Source: Porticoccaceae bacterium
Lineage (GTDB): Bacteria > Pseudomonadota > Gammaproteobacteria > Pseudomonadales > Porticoccaceae
Direction: 5' to 3'
Length of the DNA stretch: 64,000 nt
Assembly (NCBI GenBank): GCA_002702725.1
Contig: PABE01000114.1
Span: forward strand, 35,843-99,842
Shown here: positions 3,579-54,595 of the stretch, piece by piece
Layout: each line of letters opens with the position of its first letter
Position numbering within the stretch: position 1 is the stretch's first letter
Notes under the pieces: model-generated
Told to the model about the DNA's origin: nothing
What the model saw: only the letters and a program-made list of their open reading frames with translations
The model's database searches: none
Made by a program: the position numbers and the translations under genes

Positions 3579-4376
3579 TTGGAAACGCAACTTCTAGACA
3601 AGATGGGGAACGAGATAAAGGTTCCCCCGCGATTCAGCGGAGACGCCAAGAGGTTTGCCGCTCTTGTCTCTTCGCTGGAGCCACATCACTGCGCTTTCCC
3701 TACCGGATATCCGCTTCACCCCGACTCTGGCGAGCCGTGCCGATGCAAGAAGACGTCGGAAGGTGTCTGCAGGCTTCATAGCGAGAACCTTTTACCGCGC
3801 GTCATTAACGACGCACCGAGCGGACGGATTCGTGATGGCCTGATCTCCGCGTTCAAGGACTCGCGGCTGACAGATACTCGTCCGAACATCGCGATCGAAG
3901 AGTTTCTGCTCAGCGAGCGGATGAAAATGATCGAGAACGGCGAGTCGCGCCGTTTCATCGAATATGTCGAATCAGCCACATCTCGGCTTCGAGATTTGTT
4001 TGATGCCATGAAGGCGGCAATCAGCGCGGGTGATCAAGAAGAGTTTGCGAATCTGATGAAGAAGCTCGATCGAGCGATCACCAGCATCAACAAAGTCGTC
4101 GACAACCGACACAAGCATCACTCAGCACTTCGGGAGTTGAGCGATGCCAACGGGTCATCGATCCGGATGAAAGAGACGGCCAGTCGCATCGCGATTAACG
4201 AGCGGCAGGTAATCTCATTCGACACCGCCGTGATCACGATGCGGGAAATGGTCGATCTGTTTCACTTGGCCGTAAACTCCGTCGTGACCAGCAAACAGGA
4301 GCGAAACGAGGTCTATCAGAAACTGTCACACAGCATGTATTCGATCGCCGGTCGCCTAAAGCCGGAGACTCAATAG
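3579..4376 (+). CDS. hypothetical protein; candidate small terminase subunit by position only
   Basis: Its stop overlaps the GTG start of the large terminase. I recognised no motif. An alternative ATG start exists at 3603. Confidence 0.35.
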   Translation: METQLLDKMGNEIKVPPRFSGDAKRFAALVSSLEPHHCAFPTGYPLHPDSGEPCRCKKTSEGVCRLHSENLLPRVINDAPSGRIRDGLISAFKDSRLTDTRPNIAIEEFLLSERMKMIENGESRRFIEYVESATSRLRDLFDAMKAAISAGDQEEFANLMKKLDRAITSINKVVDNRHKHHSALRELSDANGSSIRMKETASRIAINERQVISFDTAVITMREMVDLFHLAVNSVVTSKQERNEVYQKLSHSMYSIAGRLKPETQ

Positions 4377-6412
4377 TGTTTCAGAATTTGATTGACGAGG
4401 CTCGTCAGGAAACGTCGCAGAACTTCCTGACCAAGAGCCTCGACAGTTTCTACAACATCGGCGAAGACGCGCGAGTCGAGCACGCTAGAAAACTGGCCGC
4501 AACGGGAAACCCATTTCCGTTGATTGCTCTGCAGTGGCCCGACGACTTGGTCATCAAAGACAAAAAGCTCGAGCAGTATTTCGAAGGAGAGGTCGGCAAC
4601 CCAGACAATCCTTGCCTGCGGATCGACCCGTGGCAGCGGTTGGTGATTCGCGCGGCATTTGACGTTACTGTCGGTGAGATTGCGATGAAGGGCTGTACGG
4701 GGGCCGGAAAAGGCTTCACGTCGGCGATCGTCGCTAATCTCCTGTTTGACGTCTTCAATCCATGCCGGATCAATGTGACGTCCGAGACGTTCCGTCACGC
4801 CAGTGAGAACCTGTTCGGTGAAATCTCGGTGTGGCGCGACAAGATGTCCAACCCTGGGCCCGGCAATCTGGTCAGCTGCCAGCTCGGCGACACAAAACGT
4901 CACTACATCACCGTCCTAAACCCGAGTCCGCACGGGAAAGGGGAGGCGTTTTCGGGTATGCACTCGGAAATGACCGTCTATTTCTTTGACGAGGCATCTG
5001 GCGTACCTGAGATCCACTACACGAACGCGTTGAAGAACGCGCGGAAGATCTTCGCGTTGTCAAACCCGCGTATTACCGAGGGTTGGTTCCGAGACTTGTA
5101 CCGACCCTTGCGTGGGGAAGGCACAAAGGAGGAGAAGAACGATCGTGAAAACGCGACGAACTATTGTACTGGTCGGATCGGCCGCCGACTTTGCGTGACC
5201 ATTCCCGGCGACGCGTGTGCCAATGTTCGATTCGGCCGGATCAAGAACCCGGTAGCTCCCCGCCGTGGAGTCGTGATCGAAGGGAAAGAGTACGGACCGG
5301 CAGAGCGGATCCCAGACGAAGACTTCGAGAAAGTCAAAGCCCTCGTGCCTCGGCAGATCGACTTGGAGCAATACCAGTCGATCATCGACACGTCAAAAGA
5401 GCCTTGGGAAGTCGAATGCTACGCGCACGCAAGGTTCCCGACGGAAGACCCAGTGCGTCAGGTCATTCTCGGGTCCAATCTGGAGCGACACGTCGAAGAA
5501 TACCGAAGACGGGCTGGACGCATTGCCGTAACATGCTTTGGCCTTGACGTGGCCCGGTCAAAGAGCGGTGACGAAACGATTCTGATGGCAGGCAGTGTTG
5601 ATGGCGTGGCAAGAAAGCATGCCTGGAAAGATGACGACAACATGCGTCATGTCAAGAAGATCTTGCGACTTTGTGAATCGGAGTACGGCATCGATCTTCG
5701 TGACGGAACCAACCCGATTTGCATCGACTACGCGGGGGGATACGGTGCGGGCGTAGGCGACCGGCTACAGGAACTTGGCTGTTGGGTGATCAAGTTCCAG
5801 CCGGCTGGTCGAGCGGTTGTCGAGACCGGCGGCATTTACGTCAACGCCCGCGCTGAGTGGTACATGTTGCTAGGCCGTCGTTTTGACCCAAATGACATCT
5901 GGCAAGAAAAACCCTGGCCTTTTCCGCCGGACGATGAACTGATCGAAGAGTTGACCAGTCCCGTCAAATTTCCGGCTCGAGGCGGAACCGCCTGGCAGAT
6001 CGAGCCAAAGGATGACATCAAGAAACGCCTCGGTCGGTCTCCCGACTCGGCTGACGCTATGGTCTGTTTGTACCGAGCCGTGTTCGAGCTCTATGAGCTT
6101 GAGAACGTCATGCGACAACACAATGAGTATGAAGTCATTGCGGAGGCAGCCACTTCCGATCCAATCGTGTTGGGGCAACATCTTGATAACCCTCGCATCC
6201 GCAGAGCAAACGATCCTGTGAAGACGCCGGAAGAGCAAGAGTATGAACGTGTCGACCCACCGGTCCGGATGACAGAGGGGATTGAGTCACGTCCGATTGA
6301 AGAGATCATCGACGATTTCGCTGACTTTGTCAGCGGATACGAAAGGGGATCGAATCAGCGGGTAAAGCCTCCGACGTTGGACTTCTTTGATAACGATGGG
6401 GACGACTGGTGA
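4376..6412 (+). CDS. terL: terminase large subunit
   Basis: 678 aa. It has a Walker A-like GCTGAGKGFTS and a Walker B-like VYFFDEASG, and sits immediately before the portal gene. Confidence 0.85.
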   Translation: MFQNLIDEARQETSQNFLTKSLDSFYNIGEDARVEHARKLAATGNPFPLIALQWPDDLVIKDKKLEQYFEGEVGNPDNPCLRIDPWQRLVIRAAFDVTVGEIAMKGCTGAGKGFTSAIVANLLFDVFNPCRINVTSETFRHASENLFGEISVWRDKMSNPGPGNLVSCQLGDTKRHYITVLNPSPHGKGEAFSGMHSEMTVYFFDEASGVPEIHYTNALKNARKIFALSNPRITEGWFRDLYRPLRGEGTKEEKNDRENATNYCTGRIGRRLCVTIPGDACANVRFGRIKNPVAPRRGVVIEGKEYGPAERIPDEDFEKVKALVPRQIDLEQYQSIIDTSKEPWEVECYAHARFPTEDPVRQVILGSNLERHVEEYRRRAGRIAVTCFGLDVARSKSGDETILMAGSVDGVARKHAWKDDDNMRHVKKILRLCESEYGIDLRDGTNPICIDYAGGYGAGVGDRLQELGCWVIKFQPAGRAVVETGGIYVNARAEWYMLLGRRFDPNDIWQEKPWPFPPDDELIEELTSPVKFPARGGTAWQIEPKDDIKKRLGRSPDSADAMVCLYRAVFELYELENVMRQHNEYEVIAEAATSDPIVLGQHLDNPRIRRANDPVKTPEEQEYERVDPPVRMTEGIESRPIEEIIDDFADFVSGYERGSNQRVKPPTLDFFDNDGDDW

Positions 6413-6843: not shown

Positions 6844-8295
6844 ATGTCGAGTATCACCCAACACTCTTTGTCGCGCGCTCGCCAACTAAGCGATGGGTAT
6901 CTAGAAACCATCCATCGTAAACGTGCTGATCGCTCGGGGTCTTCTGGCGGTGCTTACGAGCAAGTCAGCGGGATCGGTCTGTTTGGCCAGCGGTCGAATT
7001 TCTCCAATTCGCGGCAGTTCTATGACGCCTTTCGCGACACAGCGTTTACCGCGATCAGACCGGTCGCTACCCGCTTCGCCCAGCAGCCACTCCGTGTTGC
7101 CGTAACGCCACGCCGCTCGCAACGGACGAGTTTCAGCTCGATGGTGAAGTCGCTTCGCGGCGAAGGTTTCATCGGCAGCGGATTCGAGGGCCGGCAGAAG
7201 AGCTACCGGCGCGCCATGCCGGAGGCCATCAAGCAAATGCTGCCGCCTGACAGCATCGTTCTGGATGAGCACATCGTGACGGAGGCCTTCCGGCGCCCGA
7301 ACATCTGGCACAGCGACTACAGCACTTTGTACAGCGTCGCCGCATCGATGCTGTGTTGTGGTTCGGCTTTGATTACCTGGGACGAGGAAAACCTCTCGGC
7401 CGGCGAGAGCGGAGAAGAGTCCCCCTCCGTGTATTACATTCCAATGCACTGGGTGGAGCCCAAGGAGAACGTTCTCCAAGGCTGGACGATTACTCCGCCG
7501 CACACAGGCGAATCGTTTGATGTCGAGCCTGGCGAATACGTTTACTTCCAGATGCCTGACCCCGGGGATCCATTCAACACCGTTTCGCCGATGCGAGCAG
7601 CTGCCCGCGCAATTAACACAGCGGACAAGATCCACGACGCCAACTACAACGGCCTCCAGAACCTAATCAATCCGAGCTACGCGATCGTCGCCGGCAAGAT
7701 CGAGCAGCCTACCGGTGGCCAGGCCAGGCGGCCGGAACTTCGCGGCGAACAGCGCCGGAAGCTGACCGAGTTGATTAAACGGTATGCCGCCGGTGTCTTG
7801 CGGAACGGTGATCCGATCATCCTCGATGGAATCATCGAAGACGTCAAACCACTCGGTACGGTGCAGCGCGACGTCGACTATTCCGGCGGCAATGCGATGA
7901 CCGAGCGGAAGATCATGCAGGCCTTCGGTGTCAGCCCCGTGGTCGCCGGCTACGCAGAGAACGCGAACCGGGCGGGATCAAATGTTGCGCACGAAGTGTT
8001 CTACGACGTCGTTCTAAACCCACTGCTATTGCAAGCAGGCCGATCTCTCACGCATACGCTTGGTCCGAAATACTCTACGGATCAGTATCGTGTGACCGTC
8101 TACATGGAGTCAGCACAGGTTAACGACCCTGACTCAAAGCTTCGTCGCGTGGCGTTGTTCAAAGACCGATTGAGTGACCAGGAGGCTCGCCGCTTCATGC
8201 GGACAGGTGAGCTCGACATCGAGGATGAGGATAAGACATTTGAGCAAGAAAGGCAGCAACGCCAGCGCGAACAGAACAATCCAGTGGGAAGGTAA
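6844..8295 (+). CDS. portal protein (HK97-family-like)
   Basis: 483 aa, lying between the terminase and the prohead protease. The segment RKIMQAFGVSPVVAGY resembles the conserved portal C-terminal motif. Confidence 0.8.
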   Translation: MSSITQHSLSRARQLSDGYLETIHRKRADRSGSSGGAYEQVSGIGLFGQRSNFSNSRQFYDAFRDTAFTAIRPVATRFAQQPLRVAVTPRRSQRTSFSSMVKSLRGEGFIGSGFEGRQKSYRRAMPEAIKQMLPPDSIVLDEHIVTEAFRRPNIWHSDYSTLYSVAASMLCCGSALITWDEENLSAGESGEESPSVYYIPMHWVEPKENVLQGWTITPPHTGESFDVEPGEYVYFQMPDPGDPFNTVSPMRAAARAINTADKIHDANYNGLQNLINPSYAIVAGKIEQPTGGQARRPELRGEQRRKLTELIKRYAAGVLRNGDPIILDGIIEDVKPLGTVQRDVDYSGGNAMTERKIMQAFGVSPVVAGYAENANRAGSNVAHEVFYDVVLNPLLLQAGRSLTHTLGPKYSTDQYRVTVYMESAQVNDPDSKLRRVALFKDRLSDQEARRFMRTGELDIEDEDKTFEQERQQRQREQNNPVGR

Positions 8296-8323
8296 TCCCG
8301 GCGATCAGTTCTATGAATCCGGT

Positions 8324-8527
8324 GTGTTTGTCGGCACGCCTGAAGGCGACCTGAACGAGAGGCGGCAATTGGCTCAGGCCTTACATGGTTTGTATGCCGC
8401 GATCACAGAAAACCTTGGCAAAACCGGCAAATACGCGGAGATCGGATTTGCCGTCCAGATCGTTGACGGCAAGCTCAAGATCTGCGAGGCGTCAACAAAA
8501 AGGACATTCAAGCCAGCAAAAGAATAG
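8324..8527 (+). CDS. possible small ORF (67 aa) downstream of the portal gene
   Basis: GTG at 8324 in the frame of ORF 8174-8527. The upstream part of that ORF overlaps the portal gene, and I recognised no motif. Confidence 0.25.
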   Translation: MFVGTPEGDLNERRQLAQALHGLYAAITENLGKTGKYAEIGFAVQIVDGKLKICEASTKRTFKPAKE

Positions 8528-8645
8528 CGCTTTTTGACTTAAGCGTATGACTTTTGCAAATATCAGATTTGATGCGAATCGCATTTGATCCGAGGTTAGC
8601 ACAAGCAACCCGGTAGCTGCACCAAGCGGCTGCCGGGTTTTTTCG
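8521..8645 (+). promoter_or_regulatory. conserved promoter-box-terminator cassette, copy A
   Basis: It shares three blocks with 21547-21680: TAGCGCTTTTTGAC (8525-8538), TTTGATCC, and the 20-mer GAGGTTAGCACAAGCAACCC (8592-8611). TTGACT lies at 8534-8539 and a -10-like AATAT at 8559-8563. Confidence 0.6.
8607..8644 (+). terminator. intrinsic terminator inside cassette A
   Basis: AACCCGGTAGC pairs with GCTGCCGGGTT (one G-T wobble), followed by TTTTTT. It ends 2-14 nt before the protease start codon. Confidence 0.65.
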
Positions 8646-8657
8646 TTGGGACATGCT

Positions 8658-10163
8658 ATGGCACTCATTGACTTGATTAAACACGCACGCAGTGGCAATG
8701 GACTCATTGCTACCGCTGCCCCGTATCTCAAGGAAATGCAAGCCTGTTTGAAAGGCGAAGGTGCCTGCCCAGCGAAACTGTTCGGTCTCGATAGCGCTGA
8801 TGCCTGGAAGAAGGCTCTGGAAGAGGCCGACGAGAAGCTCACATACTGCGATCCAAACGGCGGGATCAAGAGCGTCAAGTCAGAGAAGGCCGAGCTGAGT
8901 GAAGGTTCGATCCTCGACTACGACGCGATCCTGTCGACAAGTCAAAAAGACCGAGACGGTGACATTCTTCGCACAGAGGGCATGCAGCTTGAGCCTGGCA
9001 TGCCGCTGCTTTGGCAGCACATGTGGAACCAGCCGATCGGCAAGATGCTCAGCATCGTGGAGCAGAACGACCGCCATGTCGTTTGCAAATACGCCGTTGC
9101 TGATACGGAAATGGGACGCGATGCCGCGAAGCTAATCCGCATGGGCGCCCTTCGAAAAAGTCATGGGTTCATGCCAATCCCCGGCTATTTCGAAATGATC
9201 GACGTCGAAAAGTCGGCTGATGGATCAATGACGCCTGCCGGCTATGACATCAAACGCTGCTCGGTGTACGAGTCCAGTGTCGTGAGCATTCCGGCCAACG
9301 CCGGCACACGCATCTTGCGGACCTACGAGAAAGAAGCTTCCGCAATCTTCACGGCGGTTGAGCAAAAGCAGCTTGAGAGTGAAGTGTTCAGCCGATGGGC
9401 CAAGGGCCTGTACGACAACCGTCAGCGGTTCTTCCCTGGAGCCGATTTTGGGCGACTCGAAAAGATGATGACCGAGATGAAAAAGACGGTCGAGGATATG
9501 GTGACTGCCAAGACTCCTGGGCAGAAGGACATGCAGTCCGACAGCCGTCCGAAGTGCAGCGAGTGTGAAGACGGCTATTGCGATGAAAGCGGCACGTGCG
9601 ACCACTGCGGTCATGTCATGCCGAAGTCTGGAAAGTCGGCAGGTCAACCCGCGTTCATCAAGTCATTTGACGAATCGGTTGCGATGACCAAGTCCTACGG
9701 GATGCCAGATTCGCTGCCTGGTTCATTCGAATCCGTTCAACGCGCCCTCAGTCGAAAGGCTGAAGACTACCTCGAGGATAACGGGGTCGATGTCGGCGAC
9801 TACGAGTACGTAACCCTGATCGCCACTTTCAGCGACAGTGCGATCGTCTGCAAGCGGAACTACCGCAAAGACTCTGAGTACTGTTACCGCCTCATGTGGG
9901 AAATGACCGAAGGCAAGCCGGCATTTACCGGCCAGCCCGAGAAGGTCGAGATCGAAGCCACCGTGGTCAGCAAGGCACTCGACGCCAGCGGCGCCCGCAT
10001 CAAAGAGATGGGTGCTGACGCCTACGCCAAGAAGCTTGTCAGTTCGGCTTTCGCCGACGGCGAGCTGAGCGATGAGACCAAGAAATCAATCAACACGCTC
10101 GCGGCGCTGATCAACCAGCCAGAAGAGCAAACCAACCCATTGACCGCTTTGTTTGGCGGTTAA
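8658..10163 (+). CDS. HK97-family prohead protease fused to a long C-terminal (scaffold-like) extension
   Basis: Protease motifs seen: DRDGDILR, PLLWQHMWNQPIG, SHGFMP and YESSVVSIPANAG. The ATG at 8658 is preferred over the TTG at 8646. A Cys/His cluster lies at 9555-9614. Confidence 0.8.
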   Translation: MALIDLIKHARSGNGLIATAAPYLKEMQACLKGEGACPAKLFGLDSADAWKKALEEADEKLTYCDPNGGIKSVKSEKAELSEGSILDYDAILSTSQKDRDGDILRTEGMQLEPGMPLLWQHMWNQPIGKMLSIVEQNDRHVVCKYAVADTEMGRDAAKLIRMGALRKSHGFMPIPGYFEMIDVEKSADGSMTPAGYDIKRCSVYESSVVSIPANAGTRILRTYEKEASAIFTAVEQKQLESEVFSRWAKGLYDNRQRFFPGADFGRLEKMMTEMKKTVEDMVTAKTPGQKDMQSDSRPKCSECEDGYCDESGTCDHCGHVMPKSGKSAGQPAFIKSFDESVAMTKSYGMPDSLPGSFESVQRALSRKAEDYLEDNGVDVGDYEYVTLIATFSDSAIVCKRNYRKDSEYCYRLMWEMTEGKPAFTGQPEKVEIEATVVSKALDASGARIKEMGADAYAKKLVSSAFADGELSDETKKSINTLAALINQPEEQTNPLTALFGG

Positions 10164-10215: not shown

Positions 10216-11853
10216 GTGATCAAAGTGACGAAGGCGCTTGCTGCGCACGCGGCCGAACATCTCGGCCTCGATTCTGATCTTGCCAAGGACTACAAGGCAA
10301 ACGAAGACGCAATCCGCAAGTGCGTTTCGGAAGCCTTGACCGAAGGTAAGTTGGAAATCGGACAACTGCAAAAGTTGATGGAAACGCCTGCCGAAGACGA
10401 GGCCAGCACGAAGGCCAAGCAGATGATCGGCGAGGCTGTCGGTGAAGCAATGGCTCCGTTTGCGAAGGGCCTGAGCGATTTGACCGATACCCTCAGCAAA
10501 GCGTTTGGCTCCGGCCAAGCGGCCACGGGTGAGACCAAGGAAACCAAGGGCGAAGGCGCTGGCGCCAAGGCCTATGGTGCGGCCGGTTCGAACCAAGGCG
10601 GAGAATCGACCCCTCCCCGCGTGAAGTGTGTCTCCGAACTGTACGACCGCACGACCAAGTCGGCGACTCGTCCCAACGGTATGCCGTACGCGATCAAGGG
10701 CGACGACGACGGAACTCCCGGTCGTGACCTGATGCACCCCAGTCAGTTTGACAAGGCTGTGTCGGGTGCGTGGTTGAAGTTCATGATCAACCGCCAGGCC
10801 AAAGTGGACAACCACAGCGTGCCGAACGGTCTGAAAATGACCGATCACGACTGGGCGTTGGTCAAGTATGCGGCCAACGAGATGCCGTTCCTCGGCCCTG
10901 TCGGCATGAAGAGCGAAGACGACGACGCCAGCTCCGGTTGGGCCAAGGGAACGCGGCTCAACGACATGCAGGTCAAGACGTTGCTTGACGACGCGACCTC
11001 CGGCGGTTTGGAAGCAGTTCCAATCGTGTTCGACGACATCGCCATTCTGACCCCGTTGCTCAACGGCGAGTTGTTCCCCTACGTCGATGTCCGCACCACG
11101 ACCCGTCGTCGTGTGGAAGGCTTCGCGATGGGCAACCCTTCGGTCTACTGGACGGCTGAAGGGTCCACCCCGACCGTGTTCAGCACCGACGACTTCATCT
11201 CGGCCTTCGACACCAACGTCCACCCCTGTACGGGAACGATGGAAGTCGGCCTGGACTTCGAGGCGGATTCGCCCGTCGGCATCGCCGATCTGTTGATCAG
11301 CCGCTACGGCCAGCAAATGGCTACCGAGTTGGACAACGTCATCGCGACTGGCTCCGGCACCGGCCGACCGCTTGGTATTTTCAACACGGTTGGGTTGACC
11401 TCGCTCAGCACCGCGAACGGAACCGGTGGTCCCTGGACGATCGGCGACATCGACAAGCTGTATTACGGCGTCGATGCGGCCTTCCGCCAGGAAGCCGGCA
11501 ACCGATTGGTCTTCGTCGGCAACGACGTGACCTACCAGCGTCTGCGTTCGATCCAAGTCGGAACCTCCGACCAGCGCCGGGTGCTCGGAATGAGCTACCT
11601 CGGAACCGGTCGTCCGATGATCAACGACGTCATGTATGCCCGCAACACGGGGATCGGAAACGGTTCGTTGGCAGCCTGCTGCTTGAACCGCTACGTCATC
11701 TACCGCCGGGCAGGTTTCTCGGTTCGCCGCGAAACCGGTGGTACGACCTTGGCGGCCAAGAACTTGAGCCAGTACATCTTCCGCATGCGGGTAGGTGGCC
11801 AGCTCAACCACAGTTCGGCCGCAGTCATCTACGACGGTGACGGCCAAACCTAA
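10216..11853 (+). CDS. major capsid protein (HK97 fold)
   Basis: The GTG start is preceded by AGGAGA. The gene follows the prohead protease. The segment LLDDATSGGLEAVPIVFDD is typical of HK97-type capsid proteins, and the N-terminal part is delta-domain-like. Confidence 0.85.
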   Translation: MIKVTKALAAHAAEHLGLDSDLAKDYKANEDAIRKCVSEALTEGKLEIGQLQKLMETPAEDEASTKAKQMIGEAVGEAMAPFAKGLSDLTDTLSKAFGSGQAATGETKETKGEGAGAKAYGAAGSNQGGESTPPRVKCVSELYDRTTKSATRPNGMPYAIKGDDDGTPGRDLMHPSQFDKAVSGAWLKFMINRQAKVDNHSVPNGLKMTDHDWALVKYAANEMPFLGPVGMKSEDDDASSGWAKGTRLNDMQVKTLLDDATSGGLEAVPIVFDDIAILTPLLNGELFPYVDVRTTTRRRVEGFAMGNPSVYWTAEGSTPTVFSTDDFISAFDTNVHPCTGTMEVGLDFEADSPVGIADLLISRYGQQMATELDNVIATGSGTGRPLGIFNTVGLTSLSTANGTGGPWTIGDIDKLYYGVDAAFRQEAGNRLVFVGNDVTYQRLRSIQVGTSDQRRVLGMSYLGTGRPMINDVMYARNTGIGNGSLAACCLNRYVIYRRAGFSVRRETGGTTLAAKNLSQYIFRMRVGGQLNHSSAAVIYDGDGQT

Positions 11854-16341: not shown

Positions 16342-16598
16342 TTTGGTGTTTGTGCCGGCCAGCAGGCATCGCAGGGGTGTCGGGTTACGGCATGCTCCCT
16401 TCAGAGGCTTCGCAGCTGACATTGGCGCAAGTCATGAATCTGCTGCGGCCAGCTGACGAGCACCGAAAAGGAAAGCCAAAACGCGTTGGAAAACGTGAGA
16501 GGTTGGCCTATCAACAGGAGCTTGAGGATTTGAAGTCTGCGGCGGACGATCTCCGCCTTGCGATGGAAGCAATAGAGAGAAAGAACAATGCCCAGTGA
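16233..16598 (+). CDS. -1 frame extension of the tail chaperone (gpT-like part of a putative G-T fusion)
   Basis: This ORF is in the -1 frame relative to 15856-16341 and overlaps it by 109 nt. It ends inside the tape-measure start region. Confidence 0.45.
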   Translation: MDGRLWDLGGPYESVDDDGTGNGRKDGPAGFSINDLIWCLCRPAGIAGVSGYGMLPSEASQLTLAQVMNLLRPADEHRKGKPKRVGKRERLAYQQELEDLKSAADDLRLAMEAIERKNNAQ

Positions 16599-18786
16599 AG
16601 GCGAAATCGGAACTGGGATTGTCAAGATCAAGGTGGACTTCACCTACCTTGACAACCAACTCCGTCGCGTCAACCGCAAAATCCAGTCGTTCAAGTTCGC
16701 GCCGATCCAGCTGAAGCTGGATAACAGCCGAATGATCAAGGACTTGGAGCGGTTTGGCAAAGTCCTCTATCGCTTTAAGGGTGCAGCAGAACGTCCGATC
16801 CACGTCCGCGTGGACACCTACAAAGCCAAGCAGGATCTGCGGCAACTGCGTGAGTCTTATCGCCGGGCGGCGCAAGGCCCGACTTTTCCGACACGCGTTC
16901 CTGGCGCAAATCCAGGCATGGCTCCAGGCAATCGCGGCGGCATTGGTCGTATTGCAGCCGGCGTGTTTGGCGGAAACATTGCATCGAATCTCGGCATGCG
17001 TGCCGCTGGAATGGCCAGGAACGCGGCCGTGTCGTTTGTTGGTGGCGGCCTTCAGCTCAACGCTGAAGTCGAAGCCTACAACAACTCTCTCGGCATTCTG
17101 CTGAAGGACCAAGAAAAGGCCAACAAACTCTTCCGTGAATTGCAGAAGATGGACCTTGAGCTGCCGGTTGATATCGGCATGCTAGCCCAAAACGCACAGA
17201 AGCTTGCTGGTGCGGGGTTTGATCCGAACAAGATCGAAGGCATGATGCGAACGATCACGGATGCCGCATCGATCAGCCCGATGGGGACCAACGAAGGGAC
17301 GTCTCGTCTCGTCCGCGCTCTCACGCAGATGCGTGGTAAAGGCAACATCCAGTTGGAAGACCTCAACCAGATCGCGGAACTCGGTATCCCGATCCGTCAA
17401 TTGATCCAACAGCAGTTCGGCATGTCTGCACAGGATCTTGGCGAGCGGACTCGTGACGGTTCGATGACGGTTGACCAAGCCATTGAGGGGATTCTCGACG
17501 GTTTCGACAGTAGCTTCGGAGGAGCACTCGAAGCGAGGGCCGGAACATTTAGCGGCATGATCGATCAGGTCAACGATCGTTTCAAGGCTCTGCGCCGCGA
17601 GATGATGGAGCCGTTCTTCGAGGCATTGCGATCTCAGCTTGAGGATCTGACTGGCTGGATGGCATCGGCCGAATTCGACAACCTCACTAAAAGTCTCGAA
17701 AACCTCGGTCGTGTTGTCAGCGAAGTTGTCCGAAGAAACACCGGTGGTGGCGGACCGAACAGTGAGGAGGGCTGGTTGAACTGGGGTGCTAGGAACCTCA
17801 CGGCTGGTTTTCAGTTGATGACGATGGATGAAGGTCTAGGCTACGCGCCTGGCGATCCGCGACAAGCACGCACCGAAGACATCGACAAATACCTGCGGCA
17901 ATTCATCCGTGGCGAGGAGATTTCTAAAGCCCAGAGCAAGATGCTGCAGATCGCCTTCGAACAGCAGCAACAATTCCAGAATGCCTGGCACGTAGCCAAA
18001 CGGCGTGGCGACAAAGAGGACATGGCCCGCCTTGAGGCGATTGATACTGAAGTAGGCACGTACGCCAAAGAGGAAAGGGCGGCCGAGGCAAGGCAAAAAC
18101 GGGAAGAGCAGGAATCCAAACGTGCCCAGATGACTTCTCAGGCCATCGAGCGTTTTGCTGGTTCATTCGGGGCGTTAGGGATTCGAGCCGAAGGTCGAAC
18201 CGGCATTTACAACGCATTGGCCTCTGCTGTGCAAGGGTTCGGCGGCGGAGAGGCTCCAACTCCGATGCAACAGGGCCTCAACGGCGGGATCACGACGGCA
18301 ATCAACGGGCTCAACAGCGCCGTCGGAAAAGCGGTCGACTTCGGCAAGAACTGGGGCAAAGGGGCCTCTGAAGCCTACAAAGAACGCCTGATCAACGAAG
18401 GCAAGAGCGAGAACCAGTTTGCTCGAAGCGAGTTTCAGAATCGCCTGGACAAGATGATCGCGGAAAATCCCGCGATCGCAGAGCGGTTGAAGAACACTGA
18501 GTTCTTCTCTGAGATGGTTCAGAACAAGGACGGCACGTTCGATACCAAGTTCAGCGTCGGAAAGCTTGGAAAAGGCGGTCCAGGAATGGCGCAGTTCACC
18601 GGTTTCGAGAGCCTCAACAAGATGCTGCAAGGTCAGGTCGACCAGGCCAACATGACGAAGTACGCGGAGGAGACGGCCAAAGCTGCTAAAGATCTGGTCG
18701 ATGGAATGAACAAGAACAATGACAAGCAGGACAAAGTGATTGAACTGCTCGGGAAAAAACCTGTTGGCATGGTGGGGGAAGGATGA
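16588..18786 (+). CDS. tail tape measure protein
   Basis: 732 aa and alpha-helical. The segment LVRALTQMRGKGNIQLEDLNQIAELGIPIRQLI matches the conserved tape-measure domain. Confidence 0.85.
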   Translation: MPSEGEIGTGIVKIKVDFTYLDNQLRRVNRKIQSFKFAPIQLKLDNSRMIKDLERFGKVLYRFKGAAERPIHVRVDTYKAKQDLRQLRESYRRAAQGPTFPTRVPGANPGMAPGNRGGIGRIAAGVFGGNIASNLGMRAAGMARNAAVSFVGGGLQLNAEVEAYNNSLGILLKDQEKANKLFRELQKMDLELPVDIGMLAQNAQKLAGAGFDPNKIEGMMRTITDAASISPMGTNEGTSRLVRALTQMRGKGNIQLEDLNQIAELGIPIRQLIQQQFGMSAQDLGERTRDGSMTVDQAIEGILDGFDSSFGGALEARAGTFSGMIDQVNDRFKALRREMMEPFFEALRSQLEDLTGWMASAEFDNLTKSLENLGRVVSEVVRRNTGGGGPNSEEGWLNWGARNLTAGFQLMTMDEGLGYAPGDPRQARTEDIDKYLRQFIRGEEISKAQSKMLQIAFEQQQQFQNAWHVAKRRGDKEDMARLEAIDTEVGTYAKEERAAEARQKREEQESKRAQMTSQAIERFAGSFGALGIRAEGRTGIYNALASAVQGFGGGEAPTPMQQGLNGGITTAINGLNSAVGKAVDFGKNWGKGASEAYKERLINEGKSENQFARSEFQNRLDKMIAENPAIAERLKNTEFFSEMVQNKDGTFDTKFSVGKLGKGGPGMAQFTGFESLNKMLQGQVDQANMTKYAEETAKAAKDLVDGMNKNNDKQDKVIELLGKKPVGMVGEG

Positions 18787-21546: not shown

Positions 21547-21680
21547 AGATTAGCGCTTTTTGACCTATCTGGTTTATCTGCGAATATGACGTTTGATCCA
21601 TAGAGATATTCGAGGTTAGCACAAGCAACCCGAAATTCTGCCAGTGCGCAGGGTTTCGGGTTTTTTCGTGCCTTGAGGGG
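21547..21680 (+). promoter_or_regulatory. conserved promoter-box-terminator cassette, copy B
   Basis: It carries TAGCGCTTTTTGAC (21551-21564), TTGACC (21560-21565), AATAT (21583-21587), TTTGATCC and the 20-mer GAGGTTAGCACAAGCAACCC (21612-21631). Confidence 0.6.
21627..21667 (+). terminator. intrinsic terminator inside cassette B
   Basis: AACCCGAAA pairs with TTTCGGGTT, followed by TTTTTT. It ends 19 nt before the ATG at 21686. Confidence 0.65.
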
Positions 21681-21685
21681 TTCAG

Positions 21686-21886
21686 ATGAACAAAGCAAAG
21701 GTTTGGAAATTCGTAAAGGGTGCGTTGATCGCATCCGCTGGCGCCGCCCTGGCTTATTTGGGCGGACAAGTAATTCCAGCGTTGGAAGTAGCTGGTACGT
21801 CGGCCACGATCGTCGCGATCGCTTCGGCATTGGTGAACCTTGGAAAGGTGATCCTGCAGAAGATCGACGACGGGGCCGCACAGTAA
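21686..21886 (+). CDS. small two-TM membrane protein (holin-like by size, topology and position)
   Basis: 66 aa with two hydrophobic stretches (GALIASAGAALAYLGG and TSATIVAIASALVNL). It is the first gene after cassette B. Confidence 0.5.
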   Translation: MNKAKVWKFVKGALIASAGAALAYLGGQVIPALEVAGTSATIVAIASALVNLGKVILQKIDDGAAQ

Positions 21887-22176
21887 TGCTCTGGATAATT
21901 CGTCGATTCAACGCCCGCAGGAAACTGCGGGCTTTGCCGCCTGAGCAGCGCGAAGTCGCTTTGGCGATGGCGGCCGATTGCTGCCACAACGCGGCGACAG
22001 CCGAAGACTGCGAACTGCTCGCCAAGAACAAACTTGAGAGCGATCCGCCTGTCGGTTTCGGCGTCGTCGAGATTCTCGCAGTGATCCAAGTACTCATTGC
22101 GATCTGGAAGTTCATCGACTCGATGGGCTGGCTTGATCGTGCAAACCGACCAATGCTCGAGAAGGAATTGCTGTGA
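21886..22176 (+). CDS. small protein with a C-terminal TM segment
   Basis: The ATG at 21886 forms a TAATG overlap. The TM segment is VGFGVVEILAVIQVLIAIW. This is an internal start within track ORF 21673-22176. Confidence 0.45.
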   Translation: MLWIIRRFNARRKLRALPPEQREVALAMAADCCHNAATAEDCELLAKNKLESDPPVGFGVVEILAVIQVLIAIWKFIDSMGWLDRANRPMLEKELL

Positions 22177-22436
22177 CCTATTTCTTTGTCGCGCTCGTCG
22201 TCATGAGCCTCGTGTATTTCGCGTGGCAGGCGTTTGTCAAATTCCGTCCAAAACGTGAAGTCCAGCAATTGGATGTTGATCCTGCGGACGTCGATCGCAA
22301 TCGGATGGAAGCGCACCGATGTTACGAATGGCTGCGGAAATACCTTGAGTTTGCTGGTGAGACGGAAGCACGGCAGCACCTCAACAAATCTGCGGCCAGC
22401 CTTTACACCAGCGAACCCAAAAGCACGCAGTCATGA
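22173..22436 (+). CDS. small protein with an N-terminal TM segment
   Basis: GTGA overlap. The TM segment is YFFVALVVMSLVYFAW. Confidence 0.5.
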   Translation: MTYFFVALVVMSLVYFAWQAFVKFRPKREVQQLDVDPADVDRNRMEAHRCYEWLRKYLEFAGETEARQHLNKSAASLYTSEPKSTQS

Positions 22437-22867
22437 ACTTAAACAAAACCGTTGGGCTGGTTTTGGCATTGAGCTTAGCGTTCCTCGCCGGGCAGTTCTT
22501 CAGCGGCAGTGGCGGCTTCTCGATTCCGGACTTTGGCGGTGTCATTCCGATCGTCGAACCGAAGGTCAACGGCGAAGGCTGGTTGGTCATGGTCGACGAG
22601 CTAAGTGATCCGCTGACGGTGACTGTCGATGCCGCCAGGAACATGGAGTGGCAAGAGAAGCTGACCAGCAAAGAGATCAAGTTCGCACGCTACGACGATG
22701 ACGACGCCGTGGCGGAGAGCTACGTCAAAGCGCTCAGCGAAAAAGTACCAGGCGTGTTGCTTATGGAAGACGAAGCCGACGGCAGGAAGGTCGTGGCGAC
22801 AAAGGCTTTGACCAAAGACGACACGCTCAGTTCGATCACCGCATTTGTGGACGCCCATACCAAATGA
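22433..22867 (+). CDS. membrane-anchored or secreted protein
   Basis: ATGA overlap. The N-terminal anchor is VGLVLALSLAFLAGQFF. Confidence 0.5.
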   Translation: MNLNKTVGLVLALSLAFLAGQFFSGSGGFSIPDFGGVIPIVEPKVNGEGWLVMVDELSDPLTVTVDAARNMEWQEKLTSKEIKFARYDDDDAVAESYVKALSEKVPGVLLMEDEADGRKVVATKALTKDDTLSSITAFVDAHTK

Positions 22868-23745
22868 CGAAAGTCGGCGAAATCGTAAAGACGGCTCCTG
22901 GCCAGCTTGATGAAATCATCGGGCCAGAGGGTAACCGGATCAAACTCGGGCTGCGGAAGCCGCCAAAAGAGTTGCCGGTCACATACGCGCCGTTGGTCGG
23001 GGCTTTGCCTCGCCTGTTGACCTACGATGAGATTAAGGCAAGGTGCGAAAGCGTCGACCGCCGCCCCTCCCGTGATCGATGGGGCCCAGACACGATCAAG
23101 GACCAAGATGGCCGAGGAGCCTGCCAAGGGTATGCGTCTGCCGGCATGGCCGAGCGTGTCCGAGAATCTAGCGGTCAGAAGCGAGTCGTCTTGTCTGGCG
23201 ACTTCTCTTACTCGCTTGCCAATGGCGGCCGAGACCAGGGGTCTGCTTTGTCGCGCGGCTTCATGGCGGCTACCCAGGTCGGCTATGCCCCTGAAGACAC
23301 GCCCGGCCTGAAGCGATGGGAATACCGCAAATCGCACATGCCGCAGGCTGCGTTCGCGGCTGCTAGCCGGTTCAAGGGTATCGACGGATTCTACTGCGAA
23401 ACGCAGCAGGAATTCTTCACGGCTCTTGCCCTCGGCATGATCGGCGTGATCGCCGTACACGTTGCCGGCGCTTTTTCGCAACTCGACAACTACGGGATCA
23501 GTCAAGGCGGCAACGGCGATGGTAACCACGCCGTGTGTGCGGACGACTTGGTCTACGACCGTCGGCTCGGCGGATTCAAGATCGACTCACCAAACAGTTG
23601 GAAGCGGACTTGGGGGGATAACGGACGTTGTTACTACACGTTCGAACGTCACCTTCGCCGCACTATCGAAGTTCACAAGTTCTACGTCTTCCCGATTCTT
23701 ACGCAGGATCCACAAGGCGATAACCCACCTCAGGTGCTCGTATGA
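22864..23745 (+). CDS. papain-family (C1-like) cysteine peptidase; candidate lysis enzyme
   Basis: Three papain-type segments are present: QDGRGACQGYASAG (Cys box), GDGNHAVCADDLVY (His box) and NSWKRTWGDNGRCYY (Asn/Trp box). Confidence 0.65.
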   Translation: MTKVGEIVKTAPGQLDEIIGPEGNRIKLGLRKPPKELPVTYAPLVGALPRLLTYDEIKARCESVDRRPSRDRWGPDTIKDQDGRGACQGYASAGMAERVRESSGQKRVVLSGDFSYSLANGGRDQGSALSRGFMAATQVGYAPEDTPGLKRWEYRKSHMPQAAFAAASRFKGIDGFYCETQQEFFTALALGMIGVIAVHVAGAFSQLDNYGISQGGNGDGNHAVCADDLVYDRRLGGFKIDSPNSWKRTWGDNGRCYYTFERHLRRTIEVHKFYVFPILTQDPQGDNPPQVLV

Positions 23746-24434
23746 AAACTCTAGCATGGATGTTCAGCTCGGCGACCGTCGCCGCGCTTGTCTCTTTGAT
23801 CGGCGTCACGGACCAAGAACCACAGACCGCTGTCGACGTCCCTGTCGCAAGCGCGCCAGTTGAAGCCGAAGTAGCTCCGGCTACGACGGTGGAGAGTTCA
23901 GACTGCTGCAGCGGGAGCTGTAACTGCTGCACGTGCGACAAAGACGCGAAGGCGGAAGCGGAGCCGGCCGAAAAGGCTGAAGTCGAGACTGCAAGTCGCC
24001 CGGAACCGAAGTTCGCGGTCGGAGAGATCGTCAGTGCAAACGGCGAGAAGTTGCGAATTAAAAGTGCCTTCTACGACGGCGATGAGTGGAAATATAAGGC
24101 TGAAGCCGTAGCGAGTACACCCGTGTACTCCTCGTCAACCGGTTCGATTGCTTCCGGGTTCTACGACGGTACGAGCAAGTGGGATTACCCAGGCGACATC
24201 GCCCAACACTTGCTGAATCATCCGAACCATCAGTTCAGCTACTCGCAAGTGGCCGGGAAGTCCAAGGACGAACTCGAGGCAATGCACGACGCTCACCATG
24301 ATCAGATGTCCGGCGTCTCTGGCCAAAGTGTTGGGGCATACCGGGTCACGAGCCCTGGGCTGTTGTCGTATCCGATGTTCCAGAGCTCTGGTCGCAGTTC
24401 GTATTGCCCCAGCGGTCGCTGCCCGTTTCAGTAA
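23742..24434 (+). CDS. secreted protein with a signal peptide and a CC/CxxC cluster
   Basis: The N-terminus MKTLAWMFSSATVAALVSLIGV is signal-peptide-like. A cysteine cluster SSDCCSGSCNCCTCD follows. Confidence 0.55.
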   Translation: MKTLAWMFSSATVAALVSLIGVTDQEPQTAVDVPVASAPVEAEVAPATTVESSDCCSGSCNCCTCDKDAKAEAEPAEKAEVETASRPEPKFAVGEIVSANGEKLRIKSAFYDGDEWKYKAEAVASTPVYSSSTGSIASGFYDGTSKWDYPGDIAQHLLNHPNHQFSYSQVAGKSKDELEAMHDAHHDQMSGVSGQSVGAYRVTSPGLLSYPMFQSSGRSSYCPSGRCPFQ

Positions 24435-24446
24435 CACGGAATCAGC

Positions 24447-24650
24447 ATGCCGACAAAAGTAAGTCTCGACGAGGCCACGACCGAGATCTCACGGCGAGCC
24501 TCGCACAAACGCGACAAACTCTGCAAGGTTGACACCGAAGTCTGCCTTGCAGCGTTTTTTGATTACCTGAATGAACTTCCGGCAGACGAGGCCTTTGCTC
24601 TGGTGAGTAAAGGCATGGCTGCGTCAGTACGGCGTAAAGCCCGAGGGTAG
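24447..24650 (+). CDS. hypothetical protein (67 aa)
   Basis: ORF only. Confidence 0.4.
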   Translation: MPTKVSLDEATTEISRRASHKRDKLCKVDTEVCLAAFFDYLNELPADEAFALVSKGMAASVRRKARG

Positions 24651-25007: not shown

Positions 25008-25832
25008 GTGACGATCTCTAGAACACTCGAGCGATGCGTTCAGCGCCCTCTACGGCGCGGTGTTTCACGCGATGGTGTGTTATCCGGTTCTGGCTATACG
25101 TTTTCAGACTCGGACGCCGAAGCCTACGTCACATTGGTCGAAACCGCAGACGGAGAAACGCTTGAAAATGGCGTTAAAGAGGCAATCGACAATTTTGTCG
25201 CCGGGTGCAAGACGGATGGGATTTGGGCGGATATCAACGCTGCGGTGATACTTGCAGGGGCAAGAACCCTAACAGGGGCACTGGTGCCGTTGAAGGGAAC
25301 CGCACCGACGAACGTCAACTTTGTCAGTGGCGACTATAGCCGCACCAACGGATTGACTGGTAATGGGAGCACGAAATACCTGAACAGCAATCGAGCTGCC
25401 GATGCCGATGACTTCGAGGATATGCACCTGTCGGTATACGTCACAGGCAGCAGGGAAACCGGAGTCGGCGGTTACATTGGCGGTTCTGCATCATCGCCGC
25501 ACGCGGTGCTTGGTAACGCAACGGGGTTTAGAGCGCGAGTCAACTCGGCGACACTGAGAACACTTGGCACTGGAACAACAGTCCCTAGCTGTATCGCTGT
25601 TAGCCGTCCCAATGCTGCAGGCTATGACTGGTGTGGCCTTGGCCAATCGGGAAATCAAGTAGACGCGAGAGTCGGCGGGGAGACTGGAGACATCACAGTT
25701 TTTGCCCGTGGCGGAGCGTCGCTTTCCGCGTGTCGACTAGCGTTCTACTCAATTGGATCGGCGACGACGCTGGCTGACTTAGACTCGCGGATTGCAACTC
25801 TCGTTTCAGCAATAGGGACGGCACTGGCATGA
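25008..25832 (+). CDS. hypothetical virion-associated protein
   Basis: 274-aa ORF with a GTG start. G/T/S-rich and likely beta-rich. Confidence 0.45.
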   Translation: MTISRTLERCVQRPLRRGVSRDGVLSGSGYTFSDSDAEAYVTLVETADGETLENGVKEAIDNFVAGCKTDGIWADINAAVILAGARTLTGALVPLKGTAPTNVNFVSGDYSRTNGLTGNGSTKYLNSNRAADADDFEDMHLSVYVTGSRETGVGGYIGGSASSPHAVLGNATGFRARVNSATLRTLGTGTTVPSCIAVSRPNAAGYDWCGLGQSGNQVDARVGGETGDITVFARGGASLSACRLAFYSIGSATTLADLDSRIATLVSAIGTALA

Positions 25833-54025: not shown

Positions 54026-54595
54026 TTATTTGTGCAGCGGGAACGGCGACACGATGATATCTGGCTCCATGTAGACAGGCTTTGCTTGACCATCTGGTCC
54101 TTTGAGCATGATCCAGGTAGCAGCAAGGCCTTCAGGCATGAACAAGCCGTTCGGGTCTGCTTGCGGCATCTGTTGCACTCGACCGTTATCGCTCATTGTG
54201 TGAATGCCCAAAAAGCGGTCGGCATCCACTAATGTTTTCGGGTTAGTAAACTGCACGCTATACGGGAGGCCAAATCCGATTGCTTCGCCGATAAAGATGA
54301 GTTCCCCGTTCAGGTTGACGATGTAGCAGTACGTCGTGATTTCTTTGTCGCGAAGCTCAAGGATGTCCTTTGCTAGCTTTCGCTCTGTGAATCGAGTGAT
54401 ATCGGGCATCCCGATCTGGCGATCTGCCTCTGCCAACCTTTGCTTTGTTTCGGCTGACTGTCGTGTATCTGCATCGTTTCCTGACAGCGCATTTGATCCG
54501 TCGAAGCTGCGGATGGCGCCTATGATTAAGCCTGCAAGGATCGCGATGATTGCAATCACAACAAGAGCTTCAACAACTGAGAATGCCTTACGCAT
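54026..54595 (-). CDS. prepilin-type (type IV pilin / pseudopilin-like) protein
   Basis: The N-terminus MRKAFSVVEALVVIAIIAILAGLIIGAI has a class III signal-like shape, with Glu at +5 after the predicted cleavage site. Confidence 0.6.
   Translation of the reverse strand: MRKAFSVVEALVVIAIIAILAGLIIGAIRSFDGSNALSGNDADTRQSAETKQRLAEADRQIGMPDITRFTERKLAKDILELRDKEITTYCYIVNLNGELIFIGEAIGFGLPYSVQFTNPKTLVDADRFLGIHTMSDNGRVQQMPQADPNGLFMPEGLAATWIMLKGPDGQAKPVYMEPDIIVSPFPLHK

Follow-up and report, generated by a model that had tools for sequence, protein, structure and literature searches.

This analysis concerns a 64,000-nucleotide (nt) stretch of DNA, here called the window, from a metagenome-assembled genome (MAG) classified as a Porticoccaceae bacterium, and within it a block of forward-strand genes at 21686-24650 that includes a gene for a papain-family (C1) cysteine peptidase. 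The window covers bases 35843-99842 of contig PABE01000114.1 (C155; 100,062 bp), the largest contig of the 3.56-Mb MAG, and C155 as a whole reads, from its sequence, as a tailed-phage genome with host flanks absent. Comparison of sequences and predicted structures leads us to regard the block as, rather probably, a lysis cassette, with the C1 peptidase as its proposed lytic enzyme and with redox-type helper proteins.

Organization of the gene block

The first six genes lie on the forward strand as the initial annotation had described them, and their open reading frames (ORFs) are present. They encode a two-segment membrane protein of 66 amino acids (aa; 21686-21886), a tail-anchored 96-aa protein (21886-22176), an N-terminally anchored 87-aa protein (22173-22436), an N-terminally anchored 144-aa protein (22433-22867), the 293-aa peptidase (22864-23745) and a secreted, Cys-rich 230-aa protein (23742-24434). 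The first ATG is preceded by a GAGG Shine-Dalgarno sequence. The genes form the overlapping chain reported earlier, with two amendments. The 96-aa gene starts at the ATG of a TAATG and so overlaps the 66-aa gene by 1 nt, not 4, the last four junctions being the 4-nt ATGA-type overlaps. The block also extends further, to a gene for a soluble, basic 67-aa protein (24447-24650); a homologue stands at the same relative position in a related locus (L002; E 6e-47 with a local profile), and by this conservation the gene appears to belong to the same block.

The initial annotation had listed four small membrane proteins. Hydropathy agrees with their transmembrane features, and we reidentify the fourth as an anchored, Cys-less thioredoxin-fold protein, described below. 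The 66-aa protein, a holin candidate, has two moderately hydrophobic, Ala/Gly-rich segments (residues ~12-33 and 35-58) and a charged C-terminus. Homologues of 60-67 aa occupy the same slot in six other loci, representing five distinct phages (including L005, L008 = L011, L017 and L023); the other four matches of its model are long Ala-rich proteins and are not comparable. The 96-aa protein has a single transmembrane segment near its C-terminus (residues 54-82) and a predicted cytoplasmic N-terminal part, with homologues in the same slot of L002, L008 and L011. The 87-aa protein has its transmembrane segment at residues 1-24, followed by a polar, helical-looking C-terminal part; homologues lie ~350-430 nt 5' of the peptidase in 16 loci (local profile), and the protein is a possible i-spanin-like or antiholin component. 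More generally, small proteins with an N- or C-terminal transmembrane segment precede the pair of thioredoxin-fold protein and peptidase in most loci. Pfam and PHROG gave no annotation for the small proteins or for the genes downstream.

The 230-aa product had been described as a signal-peptide protein with a CC/CxxC cluster, and both features are present: a signal-like segment at residues 3-23 (by hydropathy) and the sequence CCSGSCNCCTC, with CPSGRCP at the C-terminus. The protein also contains a motif domain (W-x-Y-P-G...H-L...H...L-H-D..H), and homologues lie directly 3' of the peptidase in L004, L008/L011, L010, L045, L053 and L069. Across loci, the motif of this secreted partner reads W-x-W/Y-P-G-(D/T)-(L/I)..H-L...H ... 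E-L..L-H-D..H, then a C-terminal CP(G/S)G.CP; it is carried by the window protein and by those at L004:10931-11728, L008:10887-11495 and L010:10822-11271, as well as in L069. The motif matched no Pfam or PHROG family, and it may bind metal.

Directly 5' of the block, a 134-nt regulatory element on the forward strand (copy B, 21547-21680) aligns in long identical blocks with a second copy at 8521-8645, which stands 5' of the genes for the S78 prohead protease and the capsid. In both copies, a hairpin with a T-run after it accompanies a conserved promoter-like box and a 20-mer that is identical between them (CGAGGTTAGCACAAGCAACCCG). In copy B the hairpin (21627-21662), followed by TTTTTCG, has a terminator-like score; the stems of the two copies differ in sequence, with pairing kept. 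Since the block has its own copy of the head-gene element, we infer that it is expressed late, under the same kind of regulation as the head genes.

A predicted C1A peptidase of the xylellain type

The initial annotation had read three papain signature segments in the 293-aa protein, and profile and structure searches indicate that they are genuine. PF00112 aligns over 14-216 of its 220 profile positions (E 0.006) at 17.1 bits, which does not reach the 20.7-bit cut-off; homologues do carry this domain (for example, P0130 at 23.8 bits), and phrog_16701 ('peptidase') matches the window protein at 1e-5. By sequence, the protein comes closest in the PDB to two mite allergens, Der f 1 and Der p 1; the catalytic cysteine of the former aligns with Cys87. 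The catalytic residues are intact on alignment: Gln81, Cys87, Gly220-Asn221-His222 and Trp246 are invariant in 25 aligned homologues, conservation of Ser245 is 90% or more, and nearly all of the 25 retain Asn244. The set matches Gln19, Cys25, His159, Asn175 and Trp177 of papain.

The AlphaFold model of the peptidase (predicted local distance difference test, pLDDT, 87.8; predicted template-modelling score, pTM, 0.88) has the two-lobed papain fold, and every one of the top 50 PDB matches found by Foldseek is a C1A enzyme (highest TM-score on the target, 0.72). Xylellain, a cysteine protease of Xylella fastidiosa (3OIS), ranks first (Foldseek E 4e-11), and procathepsins K, L and B come next. Among predicted viral structures (BFVD), the top matches are proteins of uncultured Caudovirales annotated 'Peptidase C1A' (TM-scores up to 0.91), and ranks 14-15 are same-fold phage proteins annotated 'Peptidoglycan binding-like' and 'N acetylmuramidase (Fragment)'. 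These two annotations suggest that C1-like domains occur in modular lysins and, as labels on predicted structures, hint that the fold is used in lysins directed at the wall; within the peptidase family itself, we found no peptidoglycan-binding motifs. From conserved residues and modelled fold alike, we conclude that the 293-aa protein is a genuine papain-family (C1A, xylellain-type) enzyme with predicted peptidase activity.

The window peptidase and xylellain, a short bacterial C1A enzyme, are alike in fold (286 aligned columns), in the Gln/Cys/His/Asn/Trp set and in approximate length, and xylellain-type enzymes share with it a short N-terminal extension, in contrast to the long propeptide of eukaryotic enzymes. 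In the phage protein this extension is conserved and ~65 aa long, and it includes no signal peptide; by analogy with xylellain, it probably holds the peptidase inactive as a zymogen. The two proteins differ in that the window peptidase is phage-borne, is only ~18% identical to xylellain, falls below the Pfam cut-off and represents a phage family in which small membrane proteins and an exported thioredoxin-fold protein without Cys consistently accompany the enzyme. Acquisition of xylellain-type C1A genes by Caudoviricetes has been described, with no role assigned (PMC10380794).

A word search returned 42 clusters of peptidase homologues, and an exhaustive HMMER search (E <= 1e-3) returned 772 representative clusters. 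None of these is from a cultured phage; among 50,697 phage records, the only member is in one unannotated huge-phage record. Some family members (P0006, P0078, P0080 and P0111) contain an intein, in some cases with a LAGLIDADG homing endonuclease. At L073:8651-10699 the intein lies directly before the catalytic Cys (..DQDGRGA / C-intein..HN / C-VGHG), which is also the +1 extein nucleophile. Inteins are usually found in conserved, important phage genes.

A conserved module with thioredoxin-fold partners

We compared 73 loci containing the peptidase (64 from IMG/VR, three from reference genomes and six from single-homologue look-ups); three further loci served the argument from genomic position only. 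A scan of GTDB for the family found only the reference-genome loci, which come from a single Gemmataceae MAG (two loci) and a Kapaibacterium MAG (one locus).

Local profiles built from the window proteins placed the 144-aa family in 71 of the 73 loci, and in 60 of them it lies at most 60 nt 5' of the peptidase. The AlphaFold model of the window member (pLDDT 87) consists of a helix at residues 5-24 and then a thioredoxin-type fold, and its best Foldseek matches are E. coli thioredoxin, the redox-inactive b' domain of protein disulfide isomerase (PDI) and Wind. A CxxC is absent from the protein and its mature part is Cys-free, and 20 homologues share no conserved Cys column. To judge from the model, the protein resembles the redox-inactive b/b' domains of PDI.

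In L043, L066, L068 and L073, as well as in 10 long representative proteins, a single chain contains an N-terminal signal or anchor, then a thioredoxin fold, then the peptidase. Because of these natural fusions to signal peptides or anchors, the peptidase would be expected to act in the periplasm. An N-terminal hydrophobic segment occurs in none of 167 stand-alone peptidases. By analogy, this split between stand-alone and signal-fused forms mirrors that between canonical, holin-dependent endolysins and secreted or signal-anchor-release (SAR) endolysins.

Redox-type proteins are also common on the other side of the peptidase. In 29 of the 73 loci the region 3' of the peptidase encodes a CxxC protein that is secreted or anchored and in many cases has a classical WCGPC or GCxPC thioredoxin motif; the window and a subset of loci have the Cys-cluster motif protein in place of this CxxC thioredoxin. 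At L025:3718-4860 and L031:9965-11113, a thioredoxin-like domain with a CxxC (CAWCKRW) is fused to the C-terminus of the peptidase, giving a third arrangement that links a thioredoxin fold to the enzyme. A distant branch of the thioredoxin-fold and peptidase pair occurs in L054-L062 and L064, which are IMG/VR records (estimated 7-18% complete, GC 31-34%) apparently from very large phages, and also in LR756511.1, a 595-kb uncultured phage record.

Genomic position and roles other than lysis

In L009 the module lies between RusA and terminase genes; in L010 it is immediately 5' of the genes for TerS, TerL, portal, S78 protease and capsid; and in L075 and L076 it follows the last very large tail gene and precedes YqaJ-type recombination genes. 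These positions are classical lysis-cassette slots, those of lambda-type phages being the nin/RusA-terminase interval or the region 3' of the tail genes. In the window, by contrast with these relatives, the cassette stands 3' of the tape measure gene (16588-18786) and two tail-distal genes and 5' of another virion-type gene block. The initial annotation had called this position inside the structural arm unusual, and comparison agrees: the window and L002, where the module lies between the portal and head (capsid) genes, are the exceptions in having it there. Since these two depart from the slots of other relatives, the module appears to be mobile.

Location between tail genes in the window, and between portal and capsid genes in L002, is also what favours a protease that matures the virion or prohead, or a virion protein that is ejected, and the initial annotation had offered a virion-processing protease as an alternative. 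We consider this role very improbable. A canonical S78 prohead protease (8646-10163) adjoins the major capsid gene (10216-11853), and L010 has an S78 enzyme and the complete relative G001, described below, an S49 enzyme; the obligate partner of the peptidase has a signal or anchor, the fused forms are secreted, and the module of other phages is outside the structural genes. The presence of the S78 enzyme, together with the exported partners and the different clan of the C1 peptidase, argues that the peptidase is not the prohead protease.

The shifting genomic position, like that of a moron, and the block's own regulatory element could point instead to a protease for host takeover or anti-defence, or to a prophage-encoded defence protease, acting on host or competitor proteins and unrelated to lysis; papain-like effectors are common in conflict systems. 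We think such a role improbable, though less so than a virion protease. PADLOC models match none of eight proteins, and sharing of the regulatory element with the head genes suggests that expression is late. The exported partners, the architecture resembling a lysis cassette and the near-universal presence in phages in which endolysins were not found also argue against it.

Search for other lytic enzymes

The initial annotation had seen no muralytic motif in the window, a negative that our searches confirm and extend to the whole of C155: a Pfam scan covering every ORF of 75 aa or longer turned up no conventional endolysin, with no match to the lysozyme, transglycosylase, amidase, CHAP, NlpC/P60, M15 or M23 families. 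CHAP was covered by this general scan of the C155 ORFs, and NlpC/P60 was also searched by name (PF00877). In six-frame searches of 36 related IMG/VR records, PF00959, PF01510, PF01464, PF05708, PF00877 and PF13539 had no matches, and PF00182, PF05838 and PF01520 had none in 24 related records; in each set, 11 of the records are 90% complete or better. All nine of these endolysin families were also without a match on C155.

G001 is a complete lambda-like relative (direct terminal repeats, 100% complete, 40.8 kb) with genes for an integrase, gpA terminase, lambda-type portal, S49 protease and gpZ. The G001 peptidase, 58% identical to that of the window, is encoded in the same seven-gene cassette, and none of the lysin families was found in the flanks of this genome (scanned) or in its centre (precomputed matches). 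Within the limited sensitivity indicated by our control searches, the peptidase is thus the sole candidate enzyme for degrading the wall or envelope that we found in the genome.

One 265-kb contig, L004, encodes a Peptidase_C92 (a permuted papain-fold enzyme; 7897-8475) just 5' of the module. Peptidase_C92 was considered as a general partner or endolysin and rejected: tblastn found none on C155, and PF05708 is absent from the 36 records. A C92-like protein in L010 was called by eye, and Pfam gave no confirmation.

These searches bear most directly on the possibility that the C1 peptidase has an accessory role as an envelope protease and that an unrecognized enzyme elsewhere in the genome cuts the peptidoglycan. 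The peptidase might then cut outer-membrane-wall tethers or envelope proteins in a spanin-like last step, or destroy receptors against superinfection. C1A enzymes cleave ordinary peptides, the partners are periplasmic, and no lipoprotein/i-spanin pair is evident in the window, all of which would suit such a role; the C92 enzyme beside the L004 module, the limited sensitivity of Pfam and the many unannotated ORFs would leave room for a separate endolysin. Set against these points, the nine endolysin families are absent from C155 and from the 24-36 related records, 11 of them near-complete, C92 is absent from the 36 records, and G001 is without another candidate enzyme. On balance we judge an accessory role unlikely, while giving it more weight than one in takeover or defence.

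Proposed mechanism and comparison with known systems

That the C1 peptidase may be the lytic enzyme was suggested in the initial annotation, and comparison makes this the best-supported reading: it draws on at least 73 loci, on the lysis slots and natural fusions among them, and on the searches in which endolysins were not found. We infer the course of events, from timing, holin role and zymogen behaviour to redox role, substrate and lysis itself, as follows. The cassette would be transcribed late, from the same promoter and hairpin element as the head genes, and the C1A peptidase would build up in the cytoplasm, probably kept inactive by its 65-aa extension. At the end of infection, the 66-aa holin candidate and the tail-anchored and N-anchored proteins would permeabilize the inner membrane. 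The released peptidase would then meet, in the periplasm, its anchored, redox-inactive thioredoxin-fold partner, possibly a docking or chaperone subunit, and the secreted Cys-rich protein, whose position is taken in many relatives by a WCGPC thioredoxin. These partners may make or keep the catalytic thiol reduced, or may open disulfide-linked substrates. The active peptidase would cut peptide bonds in the envelope, those of peptidoglycan cross-links or those of structural proteins, leading to lysis; fused forms of the peptidase would be secreted directly, without release by small membrane proteins.

The family occurs in, among others, prophage-like loci of Gemmataceae (Planctomycetota). The Gemmataceae loci and the cysteine chemistry make a protein or disulfide-rich envelope target possible, in line with the proteinaceous layer suggested in the initial annotation, and we tentatively raise a protease-based form of lysis in which the peptidase, with its thioredoxin-fold and CxxC proteins, would open a protein-rich, disulfide-stabilized envelope rather than hydrolyse peptidoglycan. 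This narrower proposal is plausible to us at a level well short of that for the lysis cassette itself.

As a proposed lysis cassette, the block has much in common with the S, R, Rz/Rz1 cassette of lambda: both are coupled late blocks of small membrane proteins and one soluble enzyme without a signal. The window cassette differs in that its enzyme, known from prediction, is of C1A type and not a glycosidase, amidase or CHAP/NlpC/M15 enzyme, in its extra thioredoxin-fold and CxxC or Cys-rich periplasmic parts, and in showing no homology to known holins or spanins. Disulfide isomerization reportedly controls a periplasmic lytic enzyme in at least one case, the SAR endolysin Lyz of phage P1. There, the cysteines lie within one lysozyme chain; here, separate thioredoxin-fold and CxxC proteins would have the redox role. 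Phage lysins of the papain-like superfamily that cut peptide bonds of the wall are also known, namely CHAP, NlpC/P60 and the pseudomurein endoisopeptidases PeiW/PeiP (PMC10318531), and they are precedents for a lysin with a Cys-His papain fold. The window protein is distinguished from these by its C1A Gln-x5-Cys, Gly-Asn-His and Asn-Ser-Trp segments.

Several points weigh against a lytic role for the peptidase. We know of no C1A enzymes with peptidoglycan as a substrate. Lysins that are cysteine peptidases normally belong to the CHAP or NlpC/P60 families (PMC10318531). The 66-aa protein matches no holin family in Pfam or PHROG, and reading the six window proteins revealed no lipobox (a pattern search was run on the relatives, where the L008 thioredoxin-fold partner carries one). 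The module's place inside the structural region of the window and of L002 is atypical for lysis, and the C92 enzyme of L004 could be the wall hydrolase of that phage. The power of the endolysin searches on divergent phages was also limited: a Phage_portal control matched only two of the 36 virus records, and PF00182 and PF05838 matched no control genome. Because of these weak controls, the endolysin negatives are suggestive rather than proof.

Phage contig and host

Beyond the cassette, C155 carries phage genes for RadC, gp88, helicases, DNA methylases, PhoH, ThyX and dNMP kinases, and the window's head genes include those for the large terminase (4376-6412) and portal (6844-8295); many C155 ORFs carry no annotation. 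Just 3' of the cassette, a 274-aa protein (25008-25832) matches phrog_17104 (E 4e-64) and has homologues (42-46% identical) only in Synechococcus siphophages (KBS-S-2A, S-CBS4, S-SRP02 and S-CBWM1). These cyanosiphophage homologues are hypothetical proteins, and that of KBS-S-2A is placed among head and neck genes. Within the same gene, 84 nt of the window (25066-25149, equal to C155:60908-60991) are 100% identical to the extreme end of contig C137, which also carries an N-terminal fragment of the gene at 69% identity. The identical 84 nt and the 69% fragment suggest that the bin also contains either a strain variant or another, related phage.

The assignment of C155 to a Porticoccaceae bin says little about its host, as we regard the binning of a free phage contig as poor evidence for host identity. 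The GC content of C155 is 54.5%, compared with 57.7% for the bin. The six pilin-like genes of the MAG are proteobacterial in type. The phage contig itself encodes a 189-aa protein (54026-54595, reverse strand) with a prepilin-type N-terminus (MRKAFSVVEALVVIAIIAILAGL), of a style that we take to be typical of Planctomycetes and Verrucomicrobia; it is the sole one of this Planctomycetes-Verrucomicrobia-Chlamydiae style. Since this prepilin stands apart from the proteobacterial pilins of the MAG, the phage contig may be mis-binned. Spacer-like matches between C155 and other contigs were limited to the 84 nt of C137 and 37 nt of C135 (95% identical).

Implications for phage lysis

To our knowledge, all characterized phage endolysins attack peptidoglycan or pseudomurein and belong to a limited set of enzyme families. 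Our data suggest that, in a large group of uncultured phages, a C1A protease accompanied by redox-type helpers appears to take the place of an endolysin. If so, these phages would have brought a new enzyme class to lysis, and their apparent lack of endolysins in annotation pipelines would be explained. The wall composition of Planctomycetota has long been debated, and the cassette could offer a handle on the envelope biology of hard-to-culture hosts, possibly including members of this phylum. The peptidase and its partners would also represent a new type of regulated periplasmic cysteine protease.

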